Below, one piece after another: positions 17,413 to 64,000 of a stretch of DNA of 64,000 bases (the stretch's first letter is position 1; each line of letters starts with the position of its first letter). Both the position numbers and the translations under genes were made by a program. Below the pieces are notes generated by a model. The model worked only from the letters and a program-made list of their open reading frames with translations, did no database searches and was not told the DNA's origin. Location: the NCBI GenBank assembly GCA_949498175.1, contig CATDDF010000041.1, positions 1,690-65,689 of the forward strand, given 5' to 3'. The stretch comes from Alphaproteobacteria bacterium. GTDB lineage: Bacteria; Pseudomonadota; Alphaproteobacteria; RS24.

Positions 17413-17424
17413 GAGCGCTGCATC

Positions 17425-17979: not shown

Positions 17980-17988
17980 AGGGAACCC

Positions 17989-18998: not shown

Positions 18999-19008
18999 GA
19001 GACGCAAG

Positions 19009-28475: not shown

Positions 28476-28530
28476 ATTGCTCTTTCTCCGCGCTTAAAAT
28501 AGGCTTTCAGTCTGACAGATTGCGGAGGCG

Positions 28531-47108: not shown

Positions 47109-48316
47109 TGAGCGACATGCCCCTGTCCAATCTCAAGGCCGAAAAAACATTATCGCCGCAAGCGCGCAAATTACTTGCCGAATTATCGCTTGACGGTGCC
47201 CTATCAGCCGGTGAACCCGATGAGGAAATTGACATAAACGCGCTGACTTACGCGGTCCATGGCGGTGAGGCACCGGTCGATACGCCGGTCTTGCTTACCC
47301 CGCATGACGACCGCAAGGCTGCGGCTTTCGCCGATTTGCTGGGCCATATTGATGATGGCGGCGATATGATGCTGGTCGATGAAAAAGCCGCTTTGGCAGT
47401 GGCTGAGAAATATCGAAGCGAAAAACAAGCGGCGCATATTGCTTTTGACGAGAATGATTTGCTCGATGAATTTGCCGTCCATGAGGACGATGCGCCGCCG
47501 CCGCTTGATAGCGCGCTGGATGAGGCACCGACGGCGCTCACAGATGCGGAAATCGACGCGGTTCTGGGCGATGACCCATTTGGCGATGAGAGCGATGGCG
47601 AGGGTCAGAAAGCACCTAGCTTTGCAGGCCTGATGTCGCGCTTCCGCGCCGGTGCCGGCGGTGTCAAACGAATGATTGGCGTGCGCAATGCGGCCGCCGC
47701 CTATAACGCGCAGTCAGGGGCGTCGCTCTTACCTTTTACGATTATTCGCGCCATTGTTTTGGTTCTGGTGGCCGCCGTACCGCCGGCCGTCAATTTGGCC
47801 ATCATCCAGCCGCAAATTTCCGACAATAGTCGCAAGCTGACACAAATTCGCGGCTTTGAGGCGCAAATGGCGGAAAATAAGAAGGTCGCCGATAAGTTGG
47901 CCAAAAGGCTCTCGGCTTTGGAACAAGATGCCAAGCGGCGCATTGACAAGCTCATGCCCAATGTCGAACTGGAGCGCCTGTTCAATAGCTATGTGGCGGC
48001 TTTGCAAAAATATGATATCGACCTGCAGGGCTATAATGTTTCGGCCTTAAATGACCGCAAAGTGATTATCGGTAATCGCGTGCAGGAAGCCAGTCTGGTC
48101 GAACTTGATTTGGTCGGGCGCTATGATATTTATGTCGATATTCGTAAGATTTTTGTCGACCAGCTGAAAATCGCCACTGTGGTGAAGGAAACCATGATAC
48201 CGCAAGAAGGCAGCCCGCAATTGCAAATCAAAGCGAGCTTGATGGTGCCGACCAAGCGAGATTATGACGCTGAATTGGATGACCCGGCCAAGCAAACGGC
48301 GGGGGCCAAACCATGA
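47108..48316 (+). CDS. pilO: PilO-like protein with long acidic N-terminal extension
   Basis: TM (IVLVLVAAVPPAVNLAII), coiled coil and LMP...ELDLVGRY pattern of PilO; position after pilMN. Confidence 0.6.
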   Translation: MSDMPLSNLKAEKTLSPQARKLLAELSLDGALSAGEPDEEIDINALTYAVHGGEAPVDTPVLLTPHDDRKAAAFADLLGHIDDGGDMMLVDEKAALAVAEKYRSEKQAAHIAFDENDLLDEFAVHEDDAPPPLDSALDEAPTALTDAEIDAVLGDDPFGDESDGEGQKAPSFAGLMSRFRAGAGGVKRMIGVRNAAAAYNAQSGASLLPFTIIRAIVLVLVAAVPPAVNLAIIQPQISDNSRKLTQIRGFEAQMAENKKVADKLAKRLSALEQDAKRRIDKLMPNVELERLFNSYVAALQKYDIDLQGYNVSALNDRKVIIGNRVQEASLVELDLVGRYDIYVDIRKIFVDQLKIATVVKETMIPQEGSPQLQIKASLMVPTKRDYDAELDDPAKQTAGAKP

Positions 48317-49932: not shown

Positions 49933-49974
49933 TGCTTTTCGGCAATAATCAAGCGCAGATTGGGGTGAGGGTTT

Positions 49975-51732
49975 ATGGTTGAGTATACCAAAGATGTGGC
50001 AGATCGCGTGTTGCGTATTCTTCGAGCCAGCGGGCAGATTGAAGAAGGCAGAATGACCGAAATCATGGTGCAGGCGGAGTCGCGCTCGGCGCGCGCGCTC
50101 AGCCTTATCATGCAAGGGGTCAGCGACCCTTATGATGAGGGCGAGAAATCGCAGCCGCTGGTCGAAGAAGAATTGGTGGTCAATATTTTGTCGCGCGCCT
50201 ATGCGCTCAGGCGCAAAAACCTCGCTCCCGGCGATGTCTCCGCCGAAGCCTTGACCTCGCTGCCGAAAGATATGATTGAGCGCGAGCATATTTTACCCTT
50301 TGCCCGTGAGGGGCGGTTTTTGCGCGTCGCGACGGTCGACCCGACCAAAGCGACCTTGGCCAATCAAATCAAGGCTTTGAGCAATCAGAATGTCGAGTTT
50401 TTTCTCATCAAGCCGAGCGAATTCAACGCCTGTATGGGGCATGAAGAAGTGCAAAGCGCTTTGGGACAGAAAAAAGAAGAAGCCAAAGCCGCCGCGCCTG
50501 CCCCCGAAGCGGCGCGCCCGCAGCCGCGCAAGCGCTCAAGCTATGATATTGATGACCCCAGCGTGGTGATTAAATTTGTTGATGATATTTTGCATCAATC
50601 AGTGATTACCGACACCAGTGACATTCATGTCGAGCCCTATCGTGAGACGGCACGCATACGCTTTCGCATTAATGGTGTGCTGGAAGCGCAAGATCAGTTT
50701 TCTGAATTTCTTTTTCACAATTACCTTGCCGTGGTTACGCGCTTCAAAATTCTTGCCGATTGCGATATATCGGAAAAACGCTTGCCGCAAGACGGAGCCA
50801 TTACCTTTAAGGCACCTGATGGAGAAGATGTCGATACGCGCTTTAATGTGCTGCCCGGCAAAAACGGCGAGCGTATTTGTATCCGCCTGCTGAAAGGCGA
50901 CCCGTCACTATCGATTGATAAAATCGGCTTTAAGGAAGCGGATTTGCAAAAGCTTATCGATGCCATTACTGCGCCGCAGGGTATGGTGCTGGTAACCGGC
51001 CCGACCGGTTCGGGCAAAACGACAACGCTCTATGGCGCGTTGCAATATATTAATGATCCGGGCACCAATATTATGACGGCGGAGGATCCGGTCGAATATT
51101 ATCTCGAAGGTTTGGGGCAGACGCAGGCCAATGAAAAAATCGGCCTGTCTTTTTCTTCCATATTGCGCGCCTTTTTGCGGCAAGATCCGGAGGTTATTCT
51201 GGTCGGCGAGATTCGCGACCAAGAGACGGTTGAGATTGCCGTCAAAGCGGCTTTGACCGGCCATTTGCTCTTATCAACCTTGCATACCAATGACGCGATT
51301 GCGACCATATCGCGCCTGCTCAATATGGGCGTACCGAGTTTTATGATTTCCGCCGCTTTGTCGCTTGTTGTGGCGCAGCGTTTGGCGCGCAAAAACTGCC
51401 CCGATTGTCTCGTGCCCGACGATACGGCAAACCCTGCCGCGCTGAAATATATCGGTTTCACCGATGAAGAAATTCAAAGCTTCCAGCCGAAAAAGGGCAG
51501 CGGTTGCGCGAGCTGCGACGGCAGCGGTTATAAGGGGCGGCAGGGCATTTATGAGGTCTTGCGCGTCACACCTGAGGTCGAAGAGGCGATTTTGAAACAG
51601 GCCCAAGCACCGGAAATTTTGGAGGCGGCGCGCGTTGATAATTTCATGACCATGCAAGAAGTCGGACGCGATTATATTCGCGATGGCGTGTTATGTTTGG
51701 AAGAGTTTACACGCGTATTGGTAGTCAATTAA
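49975..51732 (+). CDS. pilB: Type IV pilus extension ATPase
   Basis: SDIHVEP, EKRLPQDG, GPTGSGKTT, AEDPVEY, LRQDPEVI, GHLLLSTLHTN and tetra-Cys CPDC/CASC. Confidence 0.93.
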   Translation: MVEYTKDVADRVLRILRASGQIEEGRMTEIMVQAESRSARALSLIMQGVSDPYDEGEKSQPLVEEELVVNILSRAYALRRKNLAPGDVSAEALTSLPKDMIEREHILPFAREGRFLRVATVDPTKATLANQIKALSNQNVEFFLIKPSEFNACMGHEEVQSALGQKKEEAKAAAPAPEAARPQPRKRSSYDIDDPSVVIKFVDDILHQSVITDTSDIHVEPYRETARIRFRINGVLEAQDQFSEFLFHNYLAVVTRFKILADCDISEKRLPQDGAITFKAPDGEDVDTRFNVLPGKNGERICIRLLKGDPSLSIDKIGFKEADLQKLIDAITAPQGMVLVTGPTGSGKTTTLYGALQYINDPGTNIMTAEDPVEYYLEGLGQTQANEKIGLSFSSILRAFLRQDPEVILVGEIRDQETVEIAVKAALTGHLLLSTLHTNDAIATISRLLNMGVPSFMISAALSLVVAQRLARKNCPDCLVPDDTANPAALKYIGFTDEEIQSFQPKKGSGCASCDGSGYKGRQGIYEVLRVTPEVEEAILKQAQAPEILEAARVDNFMTMQEVGRDYIRDGVLCLEEFTRVLVVN

Positions 51733-51741
51733 GGTGACGTC

Positions 51742-52974
51742 ATGACGTTTTATGTTTATGCCGGGCTGCAGGGTAAGAAAAAAGTAAGAGGCCAGATTGA
51801 AGCCAATAGTATGGCGCGCGCGCGATCGGCTTTGCGCCAGCAGCGCATCAAGGTCAAAAAAATCAAAGAGATTAAAGAAAAGAAAAAAAGCGCGCTCGAT
51901 ATTCAAATCACATGGGGCCCGTTCGGGTCGATACCGAGCAAGGAAATCCTCATGTTCACCAAGAAATTATCGACCATGATACGCGCCGGTCTACCGATTT
52001 TGGACGGGTTGATCATGGTGGCAGGGCAGACCAAAAACCCCAATATGAAGCGCGTGACGCAACAAATGATTTCCACACTCAATGACGGTAAGCCCCTCTC
52101 GGAAGCCTTTAAGGAGCATGACCGGCATTTTGACAATGTTTATCGCAATATGATTGAGGCCGGCGAAGTGTCGGGTATGCTCGATAAATTCATCGATAAG
52201 CTGGTGGAAATTCTCGAGAAGCAGCAAAAAATTAAAGCCGGAATCAAATCGGCCATGTTTTATCCGGTGACATTGATTACCGTCTCGGTCGGCATTTCCA
52301 TTTTCATGCTGACCAATGTGGTACCGACATTCCAAGAAATGTATGCCGGTATGGGCATTGCGTTGCCCGGCCCGACCCAAGCCATTGTCGATGCCAGTAA
52401 TTGGATTGCCGATATAAATAATGTGCTGGGCGTGTTTGCCGTGGTGTTCGGCATTATTGCCTTTCATAGCCTGATGACCAAATATGTGCGTCCTTATCGC
52501 TTTTTATGGCACTTGCTTTTGCTCAAAATGCCCCTGTTTGGCGGCATTATCATGATGGCGGTGGTGGCGCGCTCATCTTTGCTCATGGCCAATCTGTTCG
52601 CCGCTGGCGTCAGCGTGCTGGAAACTTTAACCGTGGCGTCAACCGTGACCACCAATGTGCATTTCATGGGGGCGTTTGACCGCGTCAAACGCGATGTCAT
52701 GACCGGCGCTGAATTGTCATCGCTTTTCGCCAAGGAGAAAGTTTTTCCGATTGAGTTGTCGCAGCTCATCGCAGTCGGCGAGCGCACCGGTAATATGGAA
52801 GAAATGCTCAATTCCATCGCCAATTATTATGAAGAAGAATTTGACGCGCTGGTGGAAGGTCTGTCGACGGTAATCGAGCCGGTGATGATTGTTTTTGTCG
52901 GCGGTCTTATCGGTATGATGGTGGTGGCTTTGTATCTGCCCATCTTCTCAGCCGGTGATTTGGCCGGCGGTTAA
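51742..52974 (+). CDS. pilC: Type IV pilus platform protein
   Basis: Two GspF domains, AGEVSG, KSAMFYP, GERTG and IEPVMIV..ALYLPIF. Confidence 0.93.
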   Translation: MTFYVYAGLQGKKKVRGQIEANSMARARSALRQQRIKVKKIKEIKEKKKSALDIQITWGPFGSIPSKEILMFTKKLSTMIRAGLPILDGLIMVAGQTKNPNMKRVTQQMISTLNDGKPLSEAFKEHDRHFDNVYRNMIEAGEVSGMLDKFIDKLVEILEKQQKIKAGIKSAMFYPVTLITVSVGISIFMLTNVVPTFQEMYAGMGIALPGPTQAIVDASNWIADINNVLGVFAVVFGIIAFHSLMTKYVRPYRFLWHLLLLKMPLFGGIIMMAVVARSSLLMANLFAAGVSVLETLTVASTVTTNVHFMGAFDRVKRDVMTGAELSSLFAKEKVFPIELSQLIAVGERTGNMEEMLNSIANYYEEEFDALVEGLSTVIEPVMIVFVGGLIGMMVVALYLPIFSAGDLAGG

Positions 52975-52975
52975 G

Positions 52976-53215
52976 CTAGCCGATCGGTTCGGTCGGTTCG
53001 CCTTCGCCGCACCAATCATCTTCAAATGTTTTTGGCCAGCTGGTGCCGGTATCGGCATCATCGGCAATAATGGCCGGGGCGGGCGCTTTGCGGCGGCACA
53101 GCCCCTCGGGCGTTTTGGTCGGGCGGGCAATCATATGCGCGTCCCAAAACCGACAATGGCGGCAATGGACAATCGGCACGGGCGCAACAGGTGGGGCAAA
53201 ATCGCTATCACTCAT
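52976..53215 (-). CDS. Small four-Cys hypothetical protein
   Basis: C-x2-C-x18-C-x28-C with GLC and DWCGE. Start 53215 or 53236. Confidence 0.6.
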   Translation of the reverse strand: MSDSDFAPPVAPVPIVHCRHCRFWDAHMIARPTKTPEGLCRRKAPAPAIIADDADTGTSWPKTFEDDWCGEGEPTEPIG

Positions 53216-53316
53216 AGGCAGAAACTGGGTTATCATGGCGAAAAAAGCAAGTTTGATTATGCAAACAGGCGCATTAAACTATAATGGTGAGTGAATTTTG
53301 ATGTCGTGGGTTGCTT

Positions 53317-54258
53317 ATGAGTGCTGCTGAAGAAAAGCCGGTCGGGGATATGCCTGACCTTGCCTGTCTGGCCAATGTGGTTGATGCCGTTTTGGTCACG
53401 GTGCGCGATAAGAAAGAGCAAGTGCGTCTGGCACTGGCTGCCATGTTGTCGGGCGGTCATTTATTGATTGAAGATGCACCGGGCATGGGCAAGACCAGTC
53501 TGGCGCGCGCGCTGGGTCATCATTTGCAGCTTGATTGGTCCCGCCTGCAATGCACCAATGACACGACCCCATCCGATATTGTCGGGGTAAATATTTTTGA
53601 CCCGAAAAGCGGTGATTTCCAGTTCCGCCAAGGGCCGGTTTTCACCCAACTTTTGCTCGCCGATGAATTGAATCGCGCGCCGTCGAAAAGCCAATCGGCT
53701 TTATTGGAGGCCATGGCCGAACGCCAAGTGACGGTAGATGGGGCAAGTTTTGCTTTGCCCGAACCGTTTATCGTCATTGCCACGCAAAACCCGACCGAAC
53801 AAATCGGTGTATCGCCACTGCCCGAGAGCCAGCTCGACCGTTTTGCCGTTTCTTTCAGTCTCGGCCTGCCATCCGATGCGGTGGAGGGGGATATTCTGCG
53901 TGCCGCCATATCGGGGGAAGAAAATTTCGAACAGGGAGAGCCGGTTTTGGCAGGCGGTGATTTTAATGTGCTGCGCCGCCATTGTGCCAAAATCACTTTT
54001 GGCGATGCCATTATCGCTTATCTGCAAGCTTTGGCGACGCAATTGCGCGCCGCCAGCCTGCCCAATTTGTCAGTGCGCGCGCTGATACAAATCAAAGGGC
54101 TGGCGCAGGCGCACGCCATGATTGAGGGGCGTGATTTTTGTCAGCCTGAAGATGTGCAAGCGGTTTTCGTGCCTGCTCTGCGCCATCGTTTGGGGCCGGT
54201 CAGCAGCGCCAATATCGCCCTTTTGCAGGATATTTTGCAGCAAGTGGAAGTGCCGTAA
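53317..54258 (+). CDS. moxR: MoxR family AAA+ ATPase
   Basis: GHLLIEDAPGMGKT, LADELNRA, ATQNP and LPESQLDRF. Confidence 0.92.
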   Translation: MSAAEEKPVGDMPDLACLANVVDAVLVTVRDKKEQVRLALAAMLSGGHLLIEDAPGMGKTSLARALGHHLQLDWSRLQCTNDTTPSDIVGVNIFDPKSGDFQFRQGPVFTQLLLADELNRAPSKSQSALLEAMAERQVTVDGASFALPEPFIVIATQNPTEQIGVSPLPESQLDRFAVSFSLGLPSDAVEGDILRAAISGEENFEQGEPVLAGGDFNVLRRHCAKITFGDAIIAYLQALATQLRAASLPNLSVRALIQIKGLAQAHAMIEGRDFCQPEDVQAVFVPALRHRLGPVSSANIALLQDILQQVEVP

Positions 54259-54268
54259 GAGATGGGTC

Positions 54269-55237
54269 ATGGCCGAGCGTGACAGGCAAAACAGACGGCG
54301 CCTTTCTTTTTTTGAGCGTTTGACCCGGCGGCTCACCCTGCGGCGACGCAAATGGACAAGCGGGGCGTGGCAAATTCGCCAAAGCCATATTTTCATTCTT
54401 CCCAATCGCTATGGGTTTTATGCCGGATTTCTGGTGCTCGCCAGTTTTGCCATGGGCTATAAGGTGCAGAACAATTTCATTCTGCTCGGCGTGATTTTCT
54501 TGTTTTTGGTGTTTATGCTGTCGCTTATTGCCAGTGTGCGTAACATTCAGGGCTTGAAGATCAATGTGCAGATCGAGCCTTACTATTACGCCGGTGCCAT
54601 GCACCATATTCGCCTTTCCTTTCGCAAAGACCAGCCCGCTTTCAACCTCAAACTGAGCGGTCCGATGGGCGATGTGGTGCTTGACTTATCGCATGGCGCG
54701 ACCAGTCTTTTATTGCCGGTCGGGCAATTGCCCCGCGGCGTGCATGATGTGCCGGCTTTGAAGATTGAAACCTTATTTCCTTTCGGAATTGCCCGCGCTT
54801 GGAGTTGGCTGCGCCCGCCGGGCGATTTGGTGATTGCGCCCATGCCCAGTGAGCGCGCCATTGCCGCCTATCCGCGCGGCAATCCGGCGATGGCGCAAAG
54901 TGCTGATGAAAAGCGCCAGCAAAATAATTTTGCCGATGAGCTGGGTGATTTACGCGATTATGGCGATAGCGACCCGCCGGCGCGTATTGATTGGAAACGC
55001 TATGCGGCGACCCGCGAAACCATGGTGCGTGATCACGGGCTTGACGCACAAGGCGAACTGATTTTGCGTCAGCCCAAGGGTGATTTGGAAAACGGCCTGT
55101 CTTATTTATCGGGCGGGCTTTTGGTCGCCGAGCGCATTGGCGCACCGGTGCGCATGGTTTTGCAGGGTAATGATTATCAAATTTACGATAAACCGGCGCG
55201 GGAGAAAGCCTATTATGCTTTGGCGCGAACACAATAG
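54269..55237 (+). CDS. DUF58 family membrane protein
   Basis: Two N-terminal TMs, FPFGIARAW and LRDY...DPPARIDWK; follows moxR. Confidence 0.85.
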   Translation: MAERDRQNRRRLSFFERLTRRLTLRRRKWTSGAWQIRQSHIFILPNRYGFYAGFLVLASFAMGYKVQNNFILLGVIFLFLVFMLSLIASVRNIQGLKINVQIEPYYYAGAMHHIRLSFRKDQPAFNLKLSGPMGDVVLDLSHGATSLLLPVGQLPRGVHDVPALKIETLFPFGIARAWSWLRPPGDLVIAPMPSERAIAAYPRGNPAMAQSADEKRQQNNFADELGDLRDYGDSDPPARIDWKRYAATRETMVRDHGLDAQGELILRQPKGDLENGLSYLSGGLLVAERIGAPVRMVLQGNDYQIYDKPAREKAYYALARTQ

Positions 55238-57200
55238 GCTATTGTTTTTGCCGGGTACGGCGCAGGCGCAATTAACCGCGCTCTTATTGGCCTCGGCCGC
55301 GTCCCCCGTGGCGCTGACCATGGCCTATTTTATCGATATGCGCGCTTTTATTTTATGGTTGCTCATGTGGCCGGTCACGCTGATGCCGCGGCGTTGGTGG
55401 CGTACGGTTTTTCTTCTGGCCCTTATCCCGTTCATGCTGGCGGTCTTGGCACAATTGGCGCGCCCGCCGCAAGCGCCCTATTTCATGCTGGTTATTTTGG
55501 TCTTATCCGTATGTGAACAGGTCGGCGAAGACGGGCGGCCCGGTGCCTTTAATCTCATCGGCGTCATTTTTCCGGCGCTTTGCGTGATGGTTTTATCGAC
55601 CAATGTATTTGTTTTTTTGCTGCTTTTGCTGGCAGTGATATTTTATGCTGGGGTTTATACTTTGCGCATTAATGATATGCCGCTTTCAGGCCTGCGCATC
55701 CGCCTGTTGCCGATTGTATTGGCTTTGTCGGGCTCACTGTTTTTTGCCATTGCCGCTTTCATTCTCATGCCGCGCATTAACCCCGCTGCCATTCCCGGCC
55801 TGGTTGCACCGCAAGCCTCAAGCGGGGTCGGGGAGCGCCTCGATATGGGGCGCTTTTCGGAAGTCATATTAAATGGCGACGATGCATTTCGCGCTTTTGT
55901 CGACGCCCCCTTGCCGCAAGAAGATTTATACTGGCGGGTTCATGTTTTGGGGCTGATGGAGGGGGCAAGCTGGCTGCGGGACCCGCGCCGCGACAGTCAA
56001 ATCGGTGCTTTGCCTTTTGACAAAAGGCTGGGCCGCGTTGACCGGCGATTGCGTTATGGCGTTCGTCATGCACGCCCAGCACCCGATTGGCATCCTGTGC
56101 TGGGCGTGGCCTTGGCACCGCGTATTGATGAAAATGCGCGGCTCAATCGGTTTGGCGAATATGTCAAACAAACGCGTCGCAGCGTGCTGAAACAACAAGT
56201 GGTGATGCAATCCAGTATCGATAATCCTTATCGCGCCAATGTGCCTCATATGTTGCAAATCACCGGCCAAGCAAGGCTGACTGCGTGGGCACGAGAAAAA
56301 TATGCCGCCGTTGGTTCGCGCCGCGCCTTTATCGATATGATGCTGGCTCATTTCGCGTCCGGCGATTATCAATATACGCTGCGCCCGCAAGCCTTGACCG
56401 GCCCACCGGCCCAGCGTTTGGATAATTTTTTCTTTAATACGAAAAACGGTTATTGCAGCCATTACGCCATGGCTATGGCAACGGCGCTCCGCGCGGCCGG
56501 CATTCCGGCCAATGTGATTATCGGTTATCAGGGCGGCGAGTGGAACGGGTTCGGGCAATATTACCGCATCCGCCAATCGGACGCCCACGCTTGGGTGGAA
56601 GCGGAAATCGAGCCCGGGCAGTGGCTGCGCCTCGATCCGACTCAATTTGTGCCAAGCGGGGCGAGCCGTTTTCAAAGCCGCCAATTTGCCGCCACAAATA
56701 TTGAAAACCAGCCCGGCTGGCGCGGCGCTGTGGCACGCAGCTTGCAGCGGGTCGATGCATTTGTGGTGCGCTTGAGCAGCGATATTGTGCTTTATGATGA
56801 ACAGGCCCGCCGCGAATTATTGTCGGGCACGGTATTGGGTCGGCTGCTCTCATTTATCAGTTTTTGGCTGTTTGCCAGCCTCGCTTTGATTGTGCCACTG
56901 TTTTTGTGGCGTTGGTGGGTACGGCGCGATGTGATGGTGCGGCTCGACCGGCAATTTCAAGCCCTAGCTCGAAAAGACGGCTTGCAGCGCGCCTTCCATG
57001 AGGGACGCATGGATTTTGCCCGTCGCTGGGCGAAAAAAATGCCGCTTCTGGATGATCATGTGCAGCGCTTTGCCGAGATATTTTGCCGTCTGACTTATGG
57101 GCCCCCCATTGCAAAAAGTGATAGGCGTGCGGCGCAAAGCCTGATGAAACAACACTTGCAGCTTATCCGGCGCGCGCGACGGCAAATCGGCATGCGCTAA
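55215..57200 (+). CDS. tgpA: Transglutaminase TgpA family membrane protein (DUF3488 plus transglutaminase core)
   Basis: Multi-TM N-terminus; catalytic triad GYCSHYA, DAHAWVE and LDPT. Confidence 0.85.
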   Translation: MLWREHNRLLFLPGTAQAQLTALLLASAASPVALTMAYFIDMRAFILWLLMWPVTLMPRRWWRTVFLLALIPFMLAVLAQLARPPQAPYFMLVILVLSVCEQVGEDGRPGAFNLIGVIFPALCVMVLSTNVFVFLLLLLAVIFYAGVYTLRINDMPLSGLRIRLLPIVLALSGSLFFAIAAFILMPRINPAAIPGLVAPQASSGVGERLDMGRFSEVILNGDDAFRAFVDAPLPQEDLYWRVHVLGLMEGASWLRDPRRDSQIGALPFDKRLGRVDRRLRYGVRHARPAPDWHPVLGVALAPRIDENARLNRFGEYVKQTRRSVLKQQVVMQSSIDNPYRANVPHMLQITGQARLTAWAREKYAAVGSRRAFIDMMLAHFASGDYQYTLRPQALTGPPAQRLDNFFFNTKNGYCSHYAMAMATALRAAGIPANVIIGYQGGEWNGFGQYYRIRQSDAHAWVEAEIEPGQWLRLDPTQFVPSGASRFQSRQFAATNIENQPGWRGAVARSLQRVDAFVVRLSSDIVLYDEQARRELLSGTVLGRLLSFISFWLFASLALIVPLFLWRWWVRRDVMVRLDRQFQALARKDGLQRAFHEGRMDFARRWAKKMPLLDDHVQRFAEIFCRLTYGPPIAKSDRRAAQSLMKQHLQLIRRARRQIGMR

Positions 57201-58876
57201 AAAGCGAAAACCAAATCAAGCCGATTGCGCCCGTCATCATGCCACCAGCGTGCCTCATCGGTGACTTCCTGAATGAGATGCGTGCCCAAGCCGCCATCGC
57301 GAACATCATCGAGATTGCGCGGTTTGACTTTCTCCAAATCGATGAGAGGGGCCGTATCGGTAATGCTGACATGTAATTTTTGCTCGGCCATATAGCCGCC
57401 GATTTCAATGCGCCCGCTCATATTTTCCGGAAAGGCGTGGCGGATGATATTTTGCGTCGCCTCATCTACTGCAAGGCAAATATTCATGATGATGCCGCGC
57501 GCCGGGGTTTCGCTCAAAGCGGCTTCAATCTCTCGCCGCAAGCGGCGCAATTCCGGTATTTCATTGGTGACGGAAATAGTGAACAAAAATTGCTCGCCTG
57601 CCAGTGACGGCTCAACAATATTGGTCTGACTAAGGGTGGCCGCCACTTGCTGCGGCGCGCAGCCCAAACCCAAAAGCGTTAAATCATCGGATAAATGGTC
57701 GGCTTTTTGGCGCACCACATCTACCGTATGACCGACCTGGTCAGCAATGGAAAACTGCATTTGCTCGGCCAAAATGGTGGCCAGCTTGGTCGCCCCCAGC
57801 ATGGAACCGTTAATCTCAGCTTCGGTTATGCCGTCGGAATAGCAAAAAAACCGCGCCGCTTCGAGACTGTGATGTTCGACCTCAATATCATGTGGCGCAA
57901 AATCCAATATGCCCAATGGCTGAAGGCTGGCTTCAACATAGGAAAAGCCGCCTTTGCGATCGACAATCAGTCCCGGTTCATGGCCCGCATTGCAACATTG
58001 CATGGCACCGCTTTCGGGGTCGTATTGGCCGATAATGGCGGTCACGAACATGCCGTTAAAAGCGGTTTCCACCAATTCGCCATTCATCCGCGCCGCCAAT
58101 TCATTGACGGCGGGCAGGGCGCGGCTCAGCGAGCGAAACAGGCTGTGGGTTTTGGCCATGACCAAAGCGGCATCCGTGCCCTTGCCCGAAACATCGGCCA
58201 TGCAGAAATAAATCTGCCCGTTGCGCGACACATAATCATATAAATCGCCCGATACGCCTTTCTTCGGCACATTGACGCCGTGAATAAAGTCAAATTCGGC
58301 ATTGGGAAACAGGCTTTCCTGCACACGCGACGCCATTTGCAAATCGCGTTGGATGGTGTCGGCCTCGACCATGCGCTTGGCCATTTGTGAATTGGCCAGC
58401 GCCAAAGCGGCGCTTTTTCCGTAAACCGAAACAAGGGCGGCATCATCGTCGCTGAACAAAGCGCCATCGAGACGGTTGATGAGCTGCAGCGCGCCGAAAC
58501 GTTTGCCATTGCCCGATACGGGCACGCAAATCATCGACTTGGTTTCAAAGCCGGTTTTGGCATCTACCGCGCCGGTAAAGTCACTGTCTTCGGCGGTGTT
58601 GCGCACATAACGCATTTCATCGCTCTGCGTTACCGCGCCGACAATGCCTTGCCGTGACGGCACTTCCAAACCGGTTATGTCGGTCGGGCCGATACAGGCT
58701 TCGCACCGTAAAACATCAGCTTCTTCATGCAGCATGAAAAAGCTCGCCGCCTCGGCACCGATCTCTTCGCGAATATAATCAAGCCCCTCATAAAGGGTTT
58801 GCGCCATGTCAGAACTGGAGGCAAAGGCCGACATCATGCGGTAAACAATATCGAGTTGTTTATTGGCCTCCGGCAT
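57197..58876 (-). CDS. GAF-PP2C(SpoIIE)-HATPase partner-switching phosphatase/kinase
   Basis: GAF (SMICVP..GALQLIN); PP2C GDLYD, ADVSGKG, NAGH, SDGITE and DDLTL; RsbW-like DEATQNIIRH and GGLGTHLI. Confidence 0.88.
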   Translation of the reverse strand: MPEANKQLDIVYRMMSAFASSSDMAQTLYEGLDYIREEIGAEAASFFMLHEEADVLRCEACIGPTDITGLEVPSRQGIVGAVTQSDEMRYVRNTAEDSDFTGAVDAKTGFETKSMICVPVSGNGKRFGALQLINRLDGALFSDDDAALVSVYGKSAALALANSQMAKRMVEADTIQRDLQMASRVQESLFPNAEFDFIHGVNVPKKGVSGDLYDYVSRNGQIYFCMADVSGKGTDAALVMAKTHSLFRSLSRALPAVNELAARMNGELVETAFNGMFVTAIIGQYDPESGAMQCCNAGHEPGLIVDRKGGFSYVEASLQPLGILDFAPHDIEVEHHSLEAARFFCYSDGITEAEINGSMLGATKLATILAEQMQFSIADQVGHTVDVVRQKADHLSDDLTLLGLGCAPQQVAATLSQTNIVEPSLAGEQFLFTISVTNEIPELRRLRREIEAALSETPARGIIMNICLAVDEATQNIIRHAFPENMSGRIEIGGYMAEQKLHVSITDTAPLIDLEKVKPRNLDDVRDGGLGTHLIQEVTDEARWWHDDGRNRLDLVFAF

Positions 58877-58880
58877 AAGC

Positions 58881-59612
58881 TCAGCCGAACGTGCCCGGCG
58901 TGAAGCCCCCTCCGCCGCCGCTCTGCTCATCATTGTCAGAAGCCGGGGCTTTCGGCGGCGGGCTTGCCGCTTCGGGGGCGGTTTCAGGCGCGGCTTGCGG
59001 TGCGGGCGCCTGCGGTTCGCTGGCGGTCACCGGCTCACTTTGCGGCGCGTCGACCATTTCTGCCTTATTGCCGTCGTCTTCGTCCATAGGGTCATCCGAC
59101 ATATCGTCAGTCGGCGCATCGCCGCCCGACATTTCGTTACCGGCCATATCGCCGCTTGCCAGGGCGGCAATCAAATCATCATCTTCCGAGGCCGCGCTCG
59201 CCGAATCTTCGCTTAAGGCTGTAGGGGCGACCTCTGATGCCAAAGCGCTGTCGGCTTCGCCGGTTTTGGAAAACACATCGACATCGACCAATTGGGCTGG
59301 TCCGGAAACCGCCTTAATGGGCAAAATCTTGTCCAATTTGGCCAATTGCAAGACGCGCATGGCTTCATCGCTCATATTGGAAATGGTGAAATCTATCTGC
59401 TTTTGCTTGCAGATTTGCATGGCGATGACCAAAATCGACACACCTGAACTGTCCAAATAGCTGATATTGGCGGCATCAACGGTCAAACTGGTAGCATCTT
59501 CGATTTGACTGGTAAGCTGGGTTTTTATCTCCGGGGTGACCTCTAAATCAATATCACCTGCAAGTGTAAGTGTAATATTATCACCACGGTCGCGTCTGAA
59601 TTGAAAAGCCAT
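58881..59612 (-). CDS. STAS anti-sigma-factor antagonist with long acidic C-terminal tail
   Basis: LAGDID…, phospho-site YLDSSG and VLQLAKLDKIL, followed by ~135 aa of D/E/A/P/S-rich sequence. Confidence 0.85.
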   Translation of the reverse strand: MAFQFRRDRGDNITLTLAGDIDLEVTPEIKTQLTSQIEDATSLTVDAANISYLDSSGVSILVIAMQICKQKQIDFTISNMSDEAMRVLQLAKLDKILPIKAVSGPAQLVDVDVFSKTGEADSALASEVAPTALSEDSASAASEDDDLIAALASGDMAGNEMSGGDAPTDDMSDDPMDEDDGNKAEMVDAPQSEPVTASEPQAPAPQAAPETAPEAASPPPKAPASDNDEQSGGGGGFTPGTFG

Positions 59613-59769
59613 ACCAAAATCCTTGAATAAACAGGTTTATATTAGGTGTTTTTAGGCGACATAGCATTAAAAAATTTAGCGAAAGCGGTTGCAAAATGCT
59701 TGATTTTGAAGTTTATTTATCGCGTTGGGTTTCGCGCTTAGGCGCGTCTGTAAATAGAGGAGAGTTCCC

Positions 59770-60333
59770 ATGAACATTCGCGCAAATAGCGAAAGAGGCT
59801 TTAGCCTTATTGAACTTCTGGTTGTTGTTGCGATTATTGGTGTTCTGGCCGCCGTCGGCGTTGTCGGTTACCAAGGTTACATTGACAGCACGAAAAAATC
59901 TGTGACTGAGAATAACAGTAAGGCGGTTCATCAGTGGCTGCTTAATGCTAAGACTATTCGCTCTGCTGGCATTGATGTTGATCCAAGCGAGTGCACACAA
60001 GCCAATCTGGCTGGTACGACAGACTCTGCTACGGCCGTTGCGCCAGGTGGCTGTTTTGCAGGTCTTGGCTCCGAGGGTCACCCTTTTGAAACATTCAAGA
60101 ATCCGTATAATCAATCGCGCTCGGGTGACGCTACAATTTTGGCTACATCGAGCACTGCGGAAGTTGTAGACGACACTACCGCTTGTGTTGATCTCCTTGC
60201 TGGTGCCGAGGATGGCGATGTTCTGATCCGCGTCAGCGGCACGGTTGCCCATATTGACGTGTATTACTGCTCAAAAGTAGACGGCACTTCTGGTATCCTT
60301 AATAAAATGTCAAATACAATTACCAATTTCTAA
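59770..60333 (+). CDS. pilA: Type IVa major pilin
   Basis: Short leader MNIRANSERG|FSLIELLVVVAIIGVLAAVG, four Cys, strong AGGAG RBS, T-ending codon bias and its own terminator. Confidence 0.88.
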   Translation: MNIRANSERGFSLIELLVVVAIIGVLAAVGVVGYQGYIDSTKKSVTENNSKAVHQWLLNAKTIRSAGIDVDPSECTQANLAGTTDSATAVAPGGCFAGLGSEGHPFETFKNPYNQSRSGDATILATSSTAEVVDDTTACVDLLAGAEDGDVLIRVSGTVAHIDVYYCSKVDGTSGILNKMSNTITNF

Positions 60334-60353
60334 GTTGTGATTTATTGATTTTG

Positions 60354-60386
60354 AGAGCGCCGTGTTCGCACGGCGCTCTTTTTTTT
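60354..60386 (+). terminator. Strong Rho-independent terminator after the pilin
   Basis: AGAGCGCCGTG-TTCG-CACGGCGCTCT followed by a T tract. Confidence 0.9.
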
Positions 60387-60397
60387 GGGGCATGCAT

Positions 60398-62188
60398 ATG
60401 GCTTTGTCAGCTTTTGCCAAAACACCGCTGTTCTGGAGCATTTTATTGCTTTTTGGCGTCGCGTTTAACCATCACGTGCCGGATTTAGGCGAGACTTATG
60501 TGAGCCGCAATTTGTCTGCTTGGACGGCCATGTGTCTGAGCCTCATCCTGTTATGGTGGCGGCCTTTCAAACAAGGCGTCATTGCCTGGTCGCCCCTATG
60601 GTTGGCAGGGCTTTTATTACCGGCCATGGGTGGCTTATTTGTGCTCGTCGTCAATATTTTGGGTGGTTTTGAGCATTTTCACATCGGCCATTATTTCTTG
60701 CCGATTATTTTACTGACTTTTGCTCTATTTGTGCTTGGCTTGCTGCAATATGGCGATGAGGTGCCGGATTTAAGCCTCATCATTATCGTTATTTTTGTGG
60801 CTTTTCTGCCGCAATATCTGGTCTATCTGGCGCTGCAGAACCCGATATTCGATATTTTCGCAGCAGATATTTCCAGCCAAATTTCACCCCTTTTTACCAA
60901 GCCCTCTGCCGGTTTCGGGCAATATAATCTGCTCGGCTCTTTCGTGGCGACGCTTTTGATCCTGGCCGCCGCCGCTTTTGTTTTGCAGCCCGTGACGCGC
61001 GCGCGGCGCATTATTTTGGCGCTGATACTCATCGCCCTTACCGTCGATTTGCCTTTTGTAAGAAGCAAAACGGCGCTTTTGGGCGTGGTTTTGGCGGCGG
61101 CGGCGCTCGCTTTGCATATTATTGTGCGAAAGCCGACCCGTCCGCTTGTTCGGCGATTGGCGCTTGCCATCGGCCTTATTTTTGTGACCTATTTTGGCGT
61201 CATTGCCTTGGCCGGTGTTTTCGGTTTTGAGAAAGAATTGGCGTCACGCTCGATTGAAGCCAATCAATCCTCTTTTTCGACGCGGTTTGCCATGTGGGTG
61301 ATCGGCTTTTGGGGTTTCACGGAAAACCCGATTTTCGGGCACGGGCTGGGCAGCTATTTGACCCTGTATATGGAGCATTACGGGCGCTACGGCGTGGCTG
61401 AAGGTTTGACCTTTTATAAATTGGTCACCATCCCGCATAATCTGTTTATCCATATTTTGAGCGAAACCGGCCTGTTCGGTCTTGTGGTCATTACGGGGCC
61501 ATTTATTTGGCTGGGCGCGCACTTGCTCCGCCAGAACGATAATCGCTGGCTGCTGCTTGCTTTTCTATTGCCGATTTTGCTGCACACGCAAGTGGAATAT
61601 CCCTATATCGCATCGGGTGCTCATTATTGGCTGTTCGGCCTCGCTTTGGTCTTGGGCCAGATGAATGGCAGAGAAGATTTAAGCTTGCGCCGCTCGGCTT
61701 TGCCGCACCGGTTGATGGCGCGTTTTGCCTTTGCAGGCCTCACGGTCTATGCGCTTGCCGGCTCTATCGTCACGGTCATTCTCATCGCCGATATGCGCCG
61801 CGCAGCACTTGCTTTTGCGCGCGCCAATCAAATGCCATTGGCACAATTTATCGATTACCGAGCCAATGCGCCGGATTTGCAGCATCCGATTTTTGCCAAA
61901 AGACTGAATGCCGTTACCAATTTGCAATTGATTGATAAAATTTTTGCCGAAAAACGCTTTGAACTTTTGCGCCCGCTGGCGCTGCCTTATTTCGAGACGC
62001 AGGTTTTGAAAGACTATCCGACGCCGCCGATTTGGGAAAAAGCCATGCAGGTCTATGCGGTGCTGGGGGAAGACGAAAAACTTTTGGCCGTAATCGATAA
62101 AATGGCGCTATATGAGCCGGCGCGCGCGGCGCAATTTCGCGTACAATTTGAACTTTACCGACGCGAAAAAGCTACTCATCCTCAATAA
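60398..62188 (+). CDS. pglL: PglL/TfpO-like O-oligosaccharyltransferase (Wzy_C family)
   Basis: Multi-TM; FGQYNLLGS, RFAMW...PIFGHGLGSY, PHNLFIHILSETG and HTQVEYP; immediately downstream of the pilin. Confidence 0.78.
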   Translation: MALSAFAKTPLFWSILLLFGVAFNHHVPDLGETYVSRNLSAWTAMCLSLILLWWRPFKQGVIAWSPLWLAGLLLPAMGGLFVLVVNILGGFEHFHIGHYFLPIILLTFALFVLGLLQYGDEVPDLSLIIIVIFVAFLPQYLVYLALQNPIFDIFAADISSQISPLFTKPSAGFGQYNLLGSFVATLLILAAAAFVLQPVTRARRIILALILIALTVDLPFVRSKTALLGVVLAAAALALHIIVRKPTRPLVRRLALAIGLIFVTYFGVIALAGVFGFEKELASRSIEANQSSFSTRFAMWVIGFWGFTENPIFGHGLGSYLTLYMEHYGRYGVAEGLTFYKLVTIPHNLFIHILSETGLFGLVVITGPFIWLGAHLLRQNDNRWLLLAFLLPILLHTQVEYPYIASGAHYWLFGLALVLGQMNGREDLSLRRSALPHRLMARFAFAGLTVYALAGSIVTVILIADMRRAALAFARANQMPLAQFIDYRANAPDLQHPIFAKRLNAVTNLQLIDKIFAEKRFELLRPLALPYFETQVLKDYPTPPIWEKAMQVYAVLGEDEKLLAVIDKMALYEPARAAQFRVQFELYRREKATHPQ

Positions 62189-63209
62189 CGATAAGCCCCT
62201 GTTTTTCCAACTCATCGACATATTTTTCCATCGTAATCATGCCGAATTGCGCGCCGGTTTGCATGACGGTGGCAATTTGTGGAATTTTGTCTTCGCGAAT
62301 GAGGTTTTTCACCGCCGGCACGCAGACCATGACCTCAAATGCGCCGATGCGCCCGCCGCTTTTGCGTTTCAAAAGTTGTTGCGTCATCACCAATTGCAAA
62401 GAGGATGCAACCATAGAGCGCGCTTGCGGCTGCTCTTCGGCAGGAAATGCATCAATAATGCGGTTAATGGTTTCCGCCGCTCCTGATGTATGCAGCGTGC
62501 CGAAAACCAGATGGCCGGTTTCAGCTGCCGTCAGGGCCAATGAAATGGTTTCATAATCGCGCATCTCGCCGAGCAGCAAAATATCCGGATCTTCGCGCAA
62601 AGCGCCCTTCAGGGCGGATGCAAAGCTCACCGTATCGCGCCCGACTTCGCGCTGCGAAATAATCGATCTTATTTCCGAATGGACAAATTCGACAGGGTCT
62701 TCAATGGTGATGATATGCTCGGCGCGCTCGCGGTTGATTTTATTGATCATCGAGGCGAGCGAGGTTGATTTACCCGAACCGGTGGGGCCGGTGACCAGCA
62801 CCAAACCCTTTTTTTCCCCCAAAACCGTATGCACGGCCGGCGGCAGACCGAGCTGATCAATATTCGGCACTTCGGTGACAATGGTACGGCAAATCAAACC
62901 CCAGCCATTAAGTGTGTGATAGCCATTGGCACGAAAGCGCGCCCCGTTCACCGTGATGGCAAAATCGACGTCTTTCTTCTCGTCAAATATCTCATAAAGT
63001 TCATCGCCCAATTCATGGCGAAACACACCGTCCAACATATCATGGGTAATCGGGCAATCTTGCATGACGTTAATTTCACCATTGACGCGAATGGCCAGCG
63101 GACTGCCGGAACGCATATGAAAATCGGAAATGCGATATTCTTTCGGCAATTCGTCGAGATAGCGATAAACCGGATTATCGATGGGGGCGGGTTTTTCGGC
63201 TTCGGACAT
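62172..63209 (-). CDS. pilT: Type IV pilus retraction ATPase
   Basis: SDFHM, GPTGSGKST, TIEDPVEF, LREDPD, GHLVFGTLHT and AVKNLIRE. Confidence 0.95.
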   Translation of the reverse strand: MSEAEKPAPIDNPVYRYLDELPKEYRISDFHMRSGSPLAIRVNGEINVMQDCPITHDMLDGVFRHELGDELYEIFDEKKDVDFAITVNGARFRANGYHTLNGWGLICRTIVTEVPNIDQLGLPPAVHTVLGEKKGLVLVTGPTGSGKSTSLASMINKINRERAEHIITIEDPVEFVHSEIRSIISQREVGRDTVSFASALKGALREDPDILLLGEMRDYETISLALTAAETGHLVFGTLHTSGAAETINRIIDAFPAEEQPQARSMVASSLQLVMTQQLLKRKSGGRIGAFEVMVCVPAVKNLIREDKIPQIATVMQTGAQFGMITMEKYVDELEKQGLIVIEDE

Positions 63210-63330
63210 ATTCAGCTATGGCTCAACATTATGACTCTACACGACATTAGAATACCTGTTTATACTGGGGCTTCTGAAATTTGGCCAGAGCCTAAGTGCG
63301 GCACGGCCCTAACTGTTGCGGGTTGTCGCC

Positions 63331-64000
63331 ATGAGTGATGGCTTTCCATTTTTGATATTTTTGGCGGCGATTGGCGGCTGTCTCGGCAGTTTTGCCAATG
63401 TTGCCGCTTTGCGCAGCCTGTCAGGCGAGGATTGGATCAAACAGCCCTCAGCCTGTTTTCATTGCGGTCAGCGCCTCGGTTTTTTCGACAATTTACCGTT
63501 TTACGGCTTTCTGCGTCATGGCGGACGCAGCGCCTGTTGCGGGCAAGTGCTGCCGCGGCGCTATCTTTATGTCGAATTGGCCATGGCGGGGCTGGTCGTG
63601 CTTGCTTGGCAACAATTGGACAGCATGGTTTTTGCCGTATTTATCCCCTTTATCCTATTGATGGTGATTATTTTCCTGACCGATATGGATGCTTTCATCA
63701 TCCCCGATTGGGCCTCTTTGGGGGGTGCCGCTTTGGGTTTTGCATTGGCGCTTTTGGGCGCCCCGGGGGTGCCCGCTTTGCCGCACGCGGCGCTTGGCGG
63801 TATTGCCGGTTTTCTGCTGATTTACCTGATTAATGCGGCTTATAAATTATGGCGCGGCCATGACGGCATAGGCTTTGGCGATGTCAAATTAATGGCCATG
63901 CTGGGCATTTGGTTGGGGCCGGTCAGCCTGCTGCCGATTCTCTTTGCCGCCAGTTTGAGCGGTGCGTTTATCGGTATTGTCGCTATTTTGGCAGCGCGTG
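63331..64000 (+). CDS. pilD: Prepilin peptidase (3' partial; not in ORF track)
   Basis: MSDGFPF…GSFANV…CFHCG…ACCG…VE; catalytic Asp motifs IFLTD and GIGFGDVKL; runs off the window end. Confidence 0.9.
   Translation, partial: MSDGFPFLIFLAAIGGCLGSFANVAALRSLSGEDWIKQPSACFHCGQRLGFFDNLPFYGFLRHGGRSACCGQVLPRRYLYVELAMAGLVVLAWQQLDSMVFAVFIPFILLMVIIFLTDMDAFIIPDWASLGGAALGFALALLGAPGVPALPHAALGGIAGFLLIYLINAAYKLWRGHDGIGFGDVKLMAMLGIWLGPVSLLPILFAASLSGAFIGIVAILAAR

Follow-up and report, generated by a model that had tools for sequence, protein, structure and literature searches.

A GAF-PP2C-kinase and STAS gene pair adjoining pilA as a possible sigma-independent partner switch for the type IVa pilus

Results

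In the window analysed, a stretch of 64,000 nucleotides from a 1.68-Mb Parvibaculales MAG that is 92.6% complete, the pilus machine is represented by a pilMN fusion and by pilO-like, LysM/PilP-like, pilB and pilC genes (45465-52974, + strand), assigned by Pfam and synteny. A triad of moxR, DUF58-like and tgpA genes (53311-57200, +; Pfam) is convergent with a GAF-PP2C-kinase gene, which is adjoined by a STAS gene and then by pilA (59770-60333, +), encoding the major type IVa pilin of 187 aa. The pilin was recognized by its prepilin N-methylation motif (Pfam) and by a match to the NCBIfam prepilin-type cleavage/methylation domain, and a terminator-like hairpin with a 12-bp stem and a following T run is located directly 3' of the gene (60353-60380, +). 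The remaining genes (60362-64000; Pfam) are a pglL-like O-oligosaccharyltransferase gene (+), pilT (-) and pilD (+), which runs past the end of the window. With a secretin-like gene and minor pilins just past the window on the same contig, the type IVa pilus set (pilA, pilB, pilC, pilD, pilT, secretin and alignment complex) is complete.

The STAS gene and pilA are separated by a divergent spacer of 157 bp (59613-59769), in agreement with the original prediction. It holds TTGCAA (59689-59694) followed after 17 nt by TTTATT (59712-59717), a GC-rich inverted repeat CGCGC-TTAG-GCGCG (59733-59746) and the RBS AGGAGAG (59758-59764), and in an alignment of 20 spacers the hexamers, the inverted repeat and the RBS were conserved columns. 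When the 157-bp sequence was read by eye, no match to the sigma-54 GG-N10-GC spacing was found.

The longest open reading frame of the GAF-PP2C-kinase gene (57197-58933, -) encodes 578 aa and, starting at ATG 58933, shares 53 bp with the STAS gene. The probable start is ATG 58876 (MPEANKQ...), which is the start used by most relatives and is located 4 bp past the STAS stop codon; given this start, the 4-bp distance predicted between the two genes is correct. The protein consists of a GAF sensor domain (residues 41-181; 58391-58813, -; Pfam GAF, E = 1e-10, and GAF_2), a SpoIIE-type PP2C phosphatase domain (residues 238-422; 57668-58222, -; Pfam, E = 8.5e-35, 121 bits) and an RsbW/SpoIIAB-type serine kinase domain (residues 461-575; 57209-57553, -; HATPase_c_2, E = 3.4e-17, 63 bits against a Pfam cut-off of 27). 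The PP2C motifs VSGDxxD, DVSGKG, NAGHEP, DGxTE and DDLT, with the metal-binding aspartate motifs (GDxxD, DVSGKG, DGxTE and DDLT) among them, are kept both in the pil-linked clade and in the sister clade described below, as are the N box (E..QN..HA) and the G2 box (GGLGxH) of the kinase. The G1 box reads D-T-A, and D-x-A replaces D-x-G throughout both clades. All catalytic motifs were thus found and both catalytic domains appear intact, as had been predicted. Residues 206-570 align with Rv1364c (PDB 3ke6; E = 1e-12). The gene is present in a single copy in the genome, and in several relatives the kinase domain is encoded by a separate gene.

The STAS gene (58881-59612, -) encodes a switch protein of 243 aa with a STAS core (residues 10-101; Pfam, E = 4.6e-15) and a tail of about 140 aa, and the protein matches the NCBIfam anti-sigma-factor antagonist model above its cut-off (62 bits). 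In the AlphaFold model residues 1-110 have pLDDT values of 80-96 and the remainder is disordered; the top Foldseek match of the model was RsbV (TM 0.85). The predicted phospho-acceptor is Ser55 (codon 59448-59450) in the DSSG motif (59442-59453, -), which lines up with the phospho-Ser of TM1442, RsbV and SpoIIAA. The acceptor motif reads YLDSSG in the window protein and Y[LM]DSSG in 120/120 homologs.

A new feature is that the disordered tail carries two conserved motifs. The first, DDDLIAAL (59160-59183, -), consists of acidic residues and then a short amphipathic helix, predicted at residues 146-152 in the AlphaFold model, and was found as [DE]LIA[AE][LI] in 116/120 STAS homologs. The short STAS protein of L134, the deepest lineage, has a related form, DDDTALIEAI, and the motif was not found in the Mla-linked STAS proteins. 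The second, the C-terminal FTPGTFG (58884-58904, -), was found as F[T/K/V]PGTF inside the last eight residues in 118 of the 120 homologs and occurs once in a six-frame translation of the genome. The tail arose inside the pil-linked lineage, and such lineage-specific motifs imply a new binding partner.

The gene pair combines a GHKL kinase of the RsbW/SpoIIAB type, a PP2C/PPM phosphatase with metal-binding aspartates and a single-domain STAS protein with a conserved phosphorylatable Ser/Thr. Judged from its sequence, the pair forms a genuine partner-switch module without a sigma factor, in which the domains follow the order sensor-PP2C-kinase. No sigma factor is encoded on the contig, which bears out the prediction that none would be found nearby, and the seven Sigma70_r2 matches in the genome are all on other contigs and belong to RpoD, two RpoH-like and two ECF sigma factors. 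A group-3 sigma factor (sigma B, F or 28 type) was not found in the 92.6%-complete genome, which contains one HATPase_c_2 protein above the cut-off and one soluble STAS protein. Given that a cognate group-3 sigma factor was not found, the module was classified as a non-canonical partner switch.

The genes for STAS and GAF-PP2C-kinase were found beside pilA in 22/22 loci with a close homolog (17 from four genera together with L134, L135, L210, L211 and L212), at kinase identities down to 47%. The adjacency was kept despite rearrangements in which the MoxR-DUF58-TgpA triad or PglL was present or absent and the kinase fused or split. For example, in L135, L211 and L212 pilA still faces the module while the triad is absent and pilC-pilB adjoin, and in L134 the adjacency is retained though neither pilB nor pilMNO is adjacent. 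Recurring in all 22 loci and surviving three or more kinds of rearrangement, the adjacency exceeds chance. The STAS, GAF-PP2C and kinase genes are separated or overlap by 2-14 bp across the loci, which suggested that they form one operon.

Loss of the pilus genes is also accompanied by loss of the module. Family genomes without PilT were also without the module (G022, G146 and G301, 99-100% complete, and G021, 79% complete), and the complete genome G006 has four separate lesions across the supercluster, one of them in a cyclase gene described below. In G417 this cyclase and the STAS gene are retained, but the kinase and pilC are missing and pilB is mostly gone, indicating that the parts can persist separately for a time. 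Most of the joint losses amount to one deletion that removed adjoining genes. Within the family, relatives show the pil linkage on which the original prediction depended; given that all pil-linked examples are from this one family (Parvibaculaceae/'Rhodobiaceae'), the adjacency is partly phylogenetic inertia.

Homologs outside the family (33-41% identity for the kinase) are located in kinase-STAS-MlaE-MlaF-MlaD operons, a context (with a further aux gene) that was found in 15/17 sampled contexts and in four further loci that were looked up, and in the tree the pil-wired and Mla-wired modules are sister branches. These Mla-wired cassettes, in which GAF-PP2C, RsbW-like kinase and STAS genes precede mlaE-mlaF-mlaD, contain the closest homologs of both proteins, with about 41% identity in the STAS core, and they share with the window module the domain set, the D-x-A G1 box, the DSSG acceptor and the lack of a sigma factor. 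They differ in gene order (kinase then STAS, whereas the pil-wired order is STAS then kinase), in having a tailless STAS protein of about 110 aa instead of 243 aa with a tail, and in adjoining an ABC lipid transporter instead of pilus genes. An identification of the window STAS protein as MlaB was rejected, since there are no Mla genes in the window and the NCBIfam mlaB_1 model gave 31 bits against a cut-off of 90. In the source genome no ortholog of the module-linked MlaEFD-aux transporter and no MlaD or aux homolog was detected. Its only MlaE-MlaF pair is a distant paralog in a housekeeping context (alr-mlaE-mlaF-radA) without an adjoining STAS gene, 38% and 35% identical to the module-linked proteins, which themselves share 52-64% (MlaE) and 56-75% (MlaF) identity with the L080 reference operon. 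This indicated that the original partner of the module is gone from this genome.

The best PDB matches of the GAF domain were cNMP-binding GAF domains (PDE2A GAF-B, 5w10, PDE10A GAF-B and the GAF of a CyaB-type cyclase; E = 1e-16 to 1e-10). Its NKFDE-like motif reads N-R...F..D-A, and the specificity residues of PDE2A, including one for cGMP specificity, are not conserved. The pil supercluster ends, 6.6 kb past the window, with a class III cyclase with a CHASE2 domain, which is the only class III cyclase detectable in the genome; its specificity residues are Lys/Ser as in class IIIb adenylate cyclases, and CyaB was among its best PDB matches. Synteny of this cyclase with the pil supercluster was found in 20 loci of the family, at identities down to 50%, and homologs outside the family (at most 40% identity) have no pil linkage. 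A neighbouring MBL-fold protein had a weak match to a cNMP phosphodiesterase model (35 bits, with a cut-off of 400). The CHASE2 cyclase is a further new feature of the locus and a candidate for supplying the ligand of the GAF domain; the predicted small-molecule input is plausible given these GAF relatives and an adenylate-type cyclase in the same supercluster.

Discussion

Since all related pilus clusters that were examined have the module next to the gene for the main pilin, it most likely controls the pilus. We propose that the module works as a non-canonical partner switch, independent of sigma factors and specific to the type IVa pilus, which it would gate post-translationally; to this reading we assign a probability of about 0.5. 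What we observed is the arrangement of the domains, the conserved motifs, the conserved linkage and the joint loss; the enzymatic activity, ligand, target and direction of control are inferred as follows. The GAF domain would bind a small ligand, the leading candidate being cAMP from the CHASE2 cyclase of the same supercluster, and binding would change the relative activities of the PP2C phosphatase and RsbW-type kinase domains of this polypeptide, both of which would act on Ser55 of the STAS protein. One phospho-form of STAS might be held by the kinase domain, leaving the other free to bind a pilus component through the STAS face, the DDDLIAAL helix and the C-terminal FxPGTF on its long Pro/Glu-rich tether. 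The likeliest target would be a motor or platform protein (PilB, PilT, PilC or PilMN), by analogy with the binding of MlaB to the ATPase MlaF in the sister clade, and binding may gate pilus assembly or retraction. STAS outputs on non-sigma targets have precedents (PMC8256260, PMC5085249, PMC7367683), and MlaB, the STAS subunit in E. coli, has been proposed to be regulated by phosphorylation (Kolich 2020, PMC7367683).

The original prediction also allowed for control of pilin expression. The kinase could be an anti-sigma factor for a distant sigma factor, or, like HsbA with FlgM (PMC5085249), STAS could bind an anti-sigma or transcription factor; in both cases the activity of the pilA promoter would be set from the spacer that the genes share. 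The divergent layout, the conserved promoter region and inverted repeat upstream of pilA and the canonical function of RsbW-type kinases agree with such control. However, the module has no DNA-binding domain, the sigma factors found in the 92.6%-complete genome include none that is suitable, its nearest relatives presumably have a transporter operon and not a sigma factor as their target, and the inverted repeat is downstream of the promoter-like hexamers and may be a leader hairpin. We found no support for this part of the prediction and consider it unlikely; action on the pilus machine through STAS and its lineage-specific tail would be a better fit.

If the module were instead a stress or metabolic switch unrelated to pili, its position would reflect inherited gene order only, which could be expected in streamlined genomes with conserved gene order and in a sample of pil-linked cases from one family. 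This is likewise improbable: the adjacency outlasts several rearrangements while the genes flanking the cluster differ, the tail is an acquisition of the pil-linked lineage, and the sampled genomes never contain the module without pil genes or an intact pil cluster without the module. The Mla operons of the closest outside homologs, and an MlaE-MlaF pair in the source genome that has no STAS gene alongside, could suggest that the module still regulates an Mla-type transporter in trans, as the sister clade presumably does in cis. Given the distance of this pair, its housekeeping context, the missing MlaD and aux, and the control panels, in which Caulobacter has MlaE yet no STAS match, we regard this as very improbable. 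Regulation of the convergent MoxR-DUF58-TgpA triad, e.g. by STAS acting on the MoxR ATPase, would account for the 4-bp overlap of the kinase gene and tgpA in the window and for the triad accompanying the module in most loci, but the three loci without the triad, in which pilA still faces the STAS, GAF-PP2C and kinase genes, make it even less probable.

Post-translational gating of the pilus by the module would have parallels in other partner switches. In the HptB pathway of P. aeruginosa, HsbR, a sensor-PP2C-kinase, acts both ways on one STAS protein, HsbA, the output of which passes through the non-sigma partners FlgM and HsbD to affect motility, including type IV pilus assembly (PMC5085249). 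The predicted analogy with HsbR/HsbA stands for the sigma-less design, the domain order and a GAF domain in the place of REC; it does not extend to descent, as the nearest homologs are Mla-wired. No Response_reg match was found in the kinase protein (Pfam), the N-terminal domain of which is GAF, unlike the REC domain of HsbR that is phosphorylated by HptB. There was no specific sequence relationship to HsbR/HsbA, only a weak PP2C-level match to REC-PP2C regulators, and HsbR/HsbA is linked to flagellar genes with a tailless STAS protein, whereas the window module is pil-linked with a tailed one. In Nostoc punctiforme, HmpU/HmpV/HmpW is a partner switch steering type IV pilus-dependent motility, with unphosphorylated STAS thought to be the active form (Riley 2018, as cited in PMC8256260); as described there, it consists of three separate proteins of the cyanobacterial hmp locus, not beside pilA, and has no GAF domain, tail or cyclase. 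SypE/SypA of Vibrio fischeri is likewise a kinase/phosphatase and STAS pair encoded inside the cluster of the envelope structure that it controls (PMC8256260, PMC10120452), and differs in its kinase-REC-PP2C order and its polysaccharide locus. Rv1364c of M. tuberculosis, the best solved match to the PP2C-kinase part, is also a sensor-PP2C-RsbW kinase fusion, and differs in its PAS sensor, a STAS domain fused in the same chain and an actinobacterial host with sigma F.

As for the putative cAMP input, in the Pil-Chp/CyaB/cAMP-Vfr system of P. aeruginosa a membrane class IIIb adenylate cyclase couples surface or pilus signals to type IV pilus control. The cAMP receptor there is the CRP-type transcription factor Vfr, whereas the receptor proposed here would be a GAF domain on a phosphatase/kinase.

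Linkage of the module to pilus genes

The order pilA, STAS, kinase was kept in 22/22 contexts, all from one family, in the synteny check that the original prediction had called for. The family comprised 24 of the 40 relatives examined, deposited as Parvibaculales, Parvibaculaceae or 'Rhodobiaceae' MAGs, and the module protein was present in 18 of these 24 genomes. Seventeen of the loci represent four genera and have kinase identities ranging from 87% down to 50%, and five more are metagenomic loci with homologs that are 47-57% identical, in which this order is kept while the surroundings change. The kinase domain forms a separate gene in four loci (L134, L210, L211 and L212), starting 2 bp after or overlapping by 4 bp the GAF-PP2C gene.

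In the window genome (G000, 1.68 Mb, 92.6% complete) the module is single-copy and lies in a type IVa pilus supercluster of roughly 29 kb that occupies positions 45465-64000 of the window and continues on contig C41. A first block of pilMN fusion, pilO-like, LysM/PilP-like, pilB and pilC genes is followed by a triad of moxR, DUF58-like and tgpA genes, the GAF-PP2C-kinase gene (57197-58933, minus strand), the STAS gene (58881-59612, minus strand), a spacer of 157 bp, pilA (59770-60333, plus strand), which is followed by a strong terminator-like hairpin, and the genes for a PglL-like O-oligosaccharyltransferase, pilT and pilD. The earlier description of the module and its spacer was correct, with the kinase start as the sole caveat: the reported 4-bp gap between the STAS and kinase genes holds if the start is the ATG at 58876, which is favoured by the relatives, whereas the longest open reading frame overlaps the STAS gene by 53 bp. 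This hairpin occupies 60353-60380, directly 3' of pilA, and the GTG listed as the start of the pglL-like ORF (60362) falls within it; translation of pglL probably begins further downstream, and the pilA transcript is probably monocistronic.

Beyond the window, in coordinates counted on from it, the rest of pilD (to 64107) is followed by a gene for a DUF2497 protein, a secretin-like ORF of 1034 aa (64528-67629), minor pilins, a membrane protein, an MBL-fold hydrolase (69809-70642, minus strand), a 757-aa protein with CHASE2 and class III cyclase domains (70646-72958, minus strand), which closes the supercluster, and a rhomboid. Another pair of PilB-like and PilC-like genes (43% and 28% identity) lies on contig C80 (approximately 16844-19203) and probably serves type II secretion or a second pilus, and a pilin-like N-terminus is also found on contig C38.

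The family genomes without PilT were also without the module (G022, G146 and G301, 99-100% complete, and G021, 79%). The complete genome G006 (OZ244774.1; loci L207 and L089/L090), from the same genus as the window genome, has a supercluster in decay over its whole length, with at least four separate lesions: a deletion from pilMN to STAS, a frameshift in pilT, the absence of the secretin and of two minor pilins, and a deletion that fuses residues 1-137 of the cyclase to the C-terminal 150 residues of the MBL-fold protein next to it. This genome offers a natural 'pilus-off' strain for comparison. In G417 a single deletion extends from pilB residue 146 to about residue 71 of the kinase, and the STAS gene and cyclase are retained. 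Neither an intact pilus cluster without the module nor a module without pil genes was found among the sampled genomes. Given that the genomes are kin and that most of the losses are deletions of neighbouring genes, this joint loss is supporting evidence and not proof.

A sister branch linked to the Mla transporter

Outside the family identity falls to 33-41%, and each look-up there gave one operon encoding a GAF-PP2C-kinase, a 110-aa STAS protein, MlaE, MlaF, MlaD and a PF03886 lipoprotein. Among 400 evenly sampled alphaproteobacterial genomes, 22 besides G000 had a match at E 1e-30 or better, and 15/17 fetched contexts were of this Mla-wired form, often with a split kinase. The Mla-wired operons (L080, L081, L083, L047, L113-L127 and L129) come from many alphaproteobacterial families. 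In a maximum-likelihood tree the 11 pil-linked rows were separated from the Mla-linked rows by a long branch (0.82, SH-aLRT 94). The tree was read as unrooted, since the sole outgroup sits on a very long branch, and rooting it to find the ancestral wiring was abandoned. In the pil-wired branch the gene order is inverted, with STAS first, and the STAS protein has gained a tail.

The STAS protein and its tail

The STAS core has the RsbV/SpoIIAA fold (pLDDT 80-96 at residues 1-110, TM 0.85 to RsbV), and the predicted acceptor Ser55 lies within YLDSSG, a motif that is invariant in 120 homologs. The tail starts with a conserved segment, GPAQLVDVDVF..., followed by an acidic run with the short helix DDDLIAAL (116/120 homologs; modelled as a helix at 146-152), a stretch rich in Pro, Glu and Ala whose varying length brings the STAS proteins to totals of 189-263 aa, and a near-invariant C-terminal F[T/K]PGTF (118/120), present only once in the six-frame translated G000 genome. 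The acidic helix motif looks older than FxPGTF, because in the deepest lineage (L134) the STAS protein has 123 aa and ends immediately after the helix motif. The tail is disordered in the AlphaFold model, and a flexible tether bearing two short conserved motifs is the arrangement expected of docking peptides for a partner protein. These motifs are concrete handles for target finding, and a comparison of the bare STAS core with its tailed counterpart may reveal how switches of this type gain new targets.

The possibility that the tail end GGGGF-T mimics a prepilin peptidase substrate (G|FT) found no support, as homologs differ at position -1 (G, S, N, K, D). The PilO-like protein (47066-48316) has an acidic N-terminal extension carrying LTDAEIDAVLGDD (approximately 47537-47575), with the counterpart DADELIDLLA in locus L135, and both loosely resemble DDDLIAALASGD of the STAS tail. 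A strict pattern for a common motif gave no conserved match across loci, and a docking-motif class common to the two proteins may be considered as a lead only.

Catalytic domains, sigma factors and a candidate input

The earlier view that both catalytic domains look intact was supported: the PP2C metal-binding motifs and both the N box and the G2 box of the kinase are conserved within the family and also in the nearest out-group. The kinase G1 box (57347-57364) reads D-T-A, with Ala replacing the usual Gly, and is D-x-A throughout the pil-linked and Mla-linked clades. Among solved structures, the PP2C-kinase part is matched best by Rv1364c, a fusion protein of M. tuberculosis.

The usual captives of RsbW-type kinases are sigma factors of the B, F or 28 type. 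None was present among the seven Sigma70_r2 matches of G000, which correspond to RpoD, two RpoH-like and two ECF sigmas and are all located on contigs other than C41, in agreement with the original statement that no sigma factor is nearby.

The GAF domain matched the cNMP-binding GAFs of PDE2A, PDE10A and a cyanobacterial cyclase. A possible source of such a ligand is the CHASE2 cyclase, which has Lys (GTIDKYIGD) in its catalytic domain where guanylate cyclase Cya2 has Glu, and Ser where P. aeruginosa CyaB has Thr, residues that we take to be an adenylate-type specificity pattern. The order rhomboid, cyclase, MBL, minor pilins, secretin, pilD, pilT was found in 20 family loci with cyclase identities of at least 50%, and about 50 CHASE2-cyclase homologs outside the family (at most 40% identity) had no pil genes within 10 kb. 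In tblastn searches of G000 this was the sole detectable class III cyclase and the module GAF the only one of its type, and because of this pairing a path from cyclase to GAF is an attractive inference. The MBL-fold neighbour is not securely a phosphodiesterase; its matches to cNMP phosphodiesterases are weak and those to RNase Z-like proteins stronger.

In the region of contig C60 at approximately 28104-28802, the sole other STAS domain of G000 lies in a 744-aa ORF, presumably a SulP-type transporter. It is followed by a stretch weakly similar to the CRP cNMP-binding domain (E 4.5e-4), which may represent a second cNMP-responsive protein.

A sigma-independent switch and its alternatives

We propose, with a probability of about 0.5 for the composite reading, that the module is a sigma-independent partner switch in which a GAF ligand would set the balance of phosphatase and kinase activity on STAS Ser55, and one form of the STAS protein would use its STAS face and tail motifs to bind a component of the pilus. 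That the ligand is cAMP is a tentative step, with the odds somewhat against it. MlaB acts by binding the ATPase MlaF, and how MlaB might be phosphoregulated was left open by Kolich et al. (PMC7367683); the simplest transfer of such binding to the pilus would place the target at PilB, PilT or the PilC/PilMN platform. In its most extended version, which we consider unlikely to hold in full, the supercluster would encode its own complete chain: the CHASE2 receptor-cyclase would make cAMP, read by the GAF of the phosphatase/kinase, and the phospho-state of the STAS protein would determine docking of its acidic helix and tethered FxPGTF peptide on the motor or platform of the pilus, the switch having arisen by re-wiring of a cassette whose role in other genomes would be to gate the Mla lipid transporter.

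Several other explanations were weighed against this proposal. The module could still act on the Mla system, in trans, as its relatives appear to do in cis; in G000, however, the Mla genes are limited to an mlaE-mlaF pair in a housekeeping setting, flanked by alr and radA, with 38% and 35% identity to their module-linked counterparts. Searches of this genome for an MlaD or lipoprotein homolog found nothing, which leaves it without a partner of the ancestral type. The module could regulate the MoxR triad, its neighbour in the window, but three loci that keep the module (L135, L211 and L212) are without the triad, and there the kinase gene abuts pilC-pilB. PglL is likewise missing from several module-bearing loci, and L134 has no pilB or pilMNO nearby; the 22/22 linkage under changing surroundings argues against either the triad or PglL as the partner. 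Transcriptional control through a sigma factor or other regulator is a further alternative, made less likely by the sigma complement of G000. Finally, the module might have an unrelated function and an inherited position, as every pil-wired case is from one family. The evidence throughout is comparative.

Non-canonical STAS switches with non-sigma or undefined targets are established (SypE/SypA, HsbR/HsbA, RbaV/W/Y, BtrU/V/W and HmpU/V/W; PMC8256260, PMC5085249). The proposed analogy to HsbR held for the sensor-PP2C-kinase order, but the HsbR sensor is a REC domain and there is no specific sequence kinship. HmpUVW of Nostoc controls pilus-based motility yet, unlike the module, is not built into a pilus cluster. 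In the open-access literature searched, no partner switch encoded inside a pilus cluster was described, nor any STAS switch next to pilA or tailed STAS protein of this kind.

Type IV pili are controlled by two-component systems, c-di-GMP, cAMP-Vfr and chemosensory arrays, and in most non-canonical STAS systems (SypA, RbaV, HmpV, BtrV) the target is the unknown. The proposed switch, if true, would add a new control layer for type IV pili in abundant, streamlined aquatic alphaproteobacteria, and the extended chain would make it the first partner switch directly gating the type IV pilus machine. The attachment of one kinase/phosphatase/STAS cassette to the Mla transporter in one branch and to the type IVa pilus in the other, two different envelope machines, constitutes a natural experiment, and if the re-wiring is true, STAS phospho-switches would be general plug-in regulators of envelope ATPase machines.

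The spacer upstream of pilA

A sigma-54 promoter for pilA was rejected, since there is no GG at the required 10-nt spacing from the conserved TTGCA. The sigma-70-like TTGCAA-17-TTTATT is a better fit, and the promoter scanner made no call there. A GC-rich inverted repeat, CGCGC-TTAG-GCGCG (59733-59746), is located 24-37 nt upstream of the pilA start codon and may be a leader hairpin or an operator; its position is conserved across the family, and in deeper lineages the repeat is altered and still palindromic (e.g. ATCACGC-GA-TGCGTGAT).
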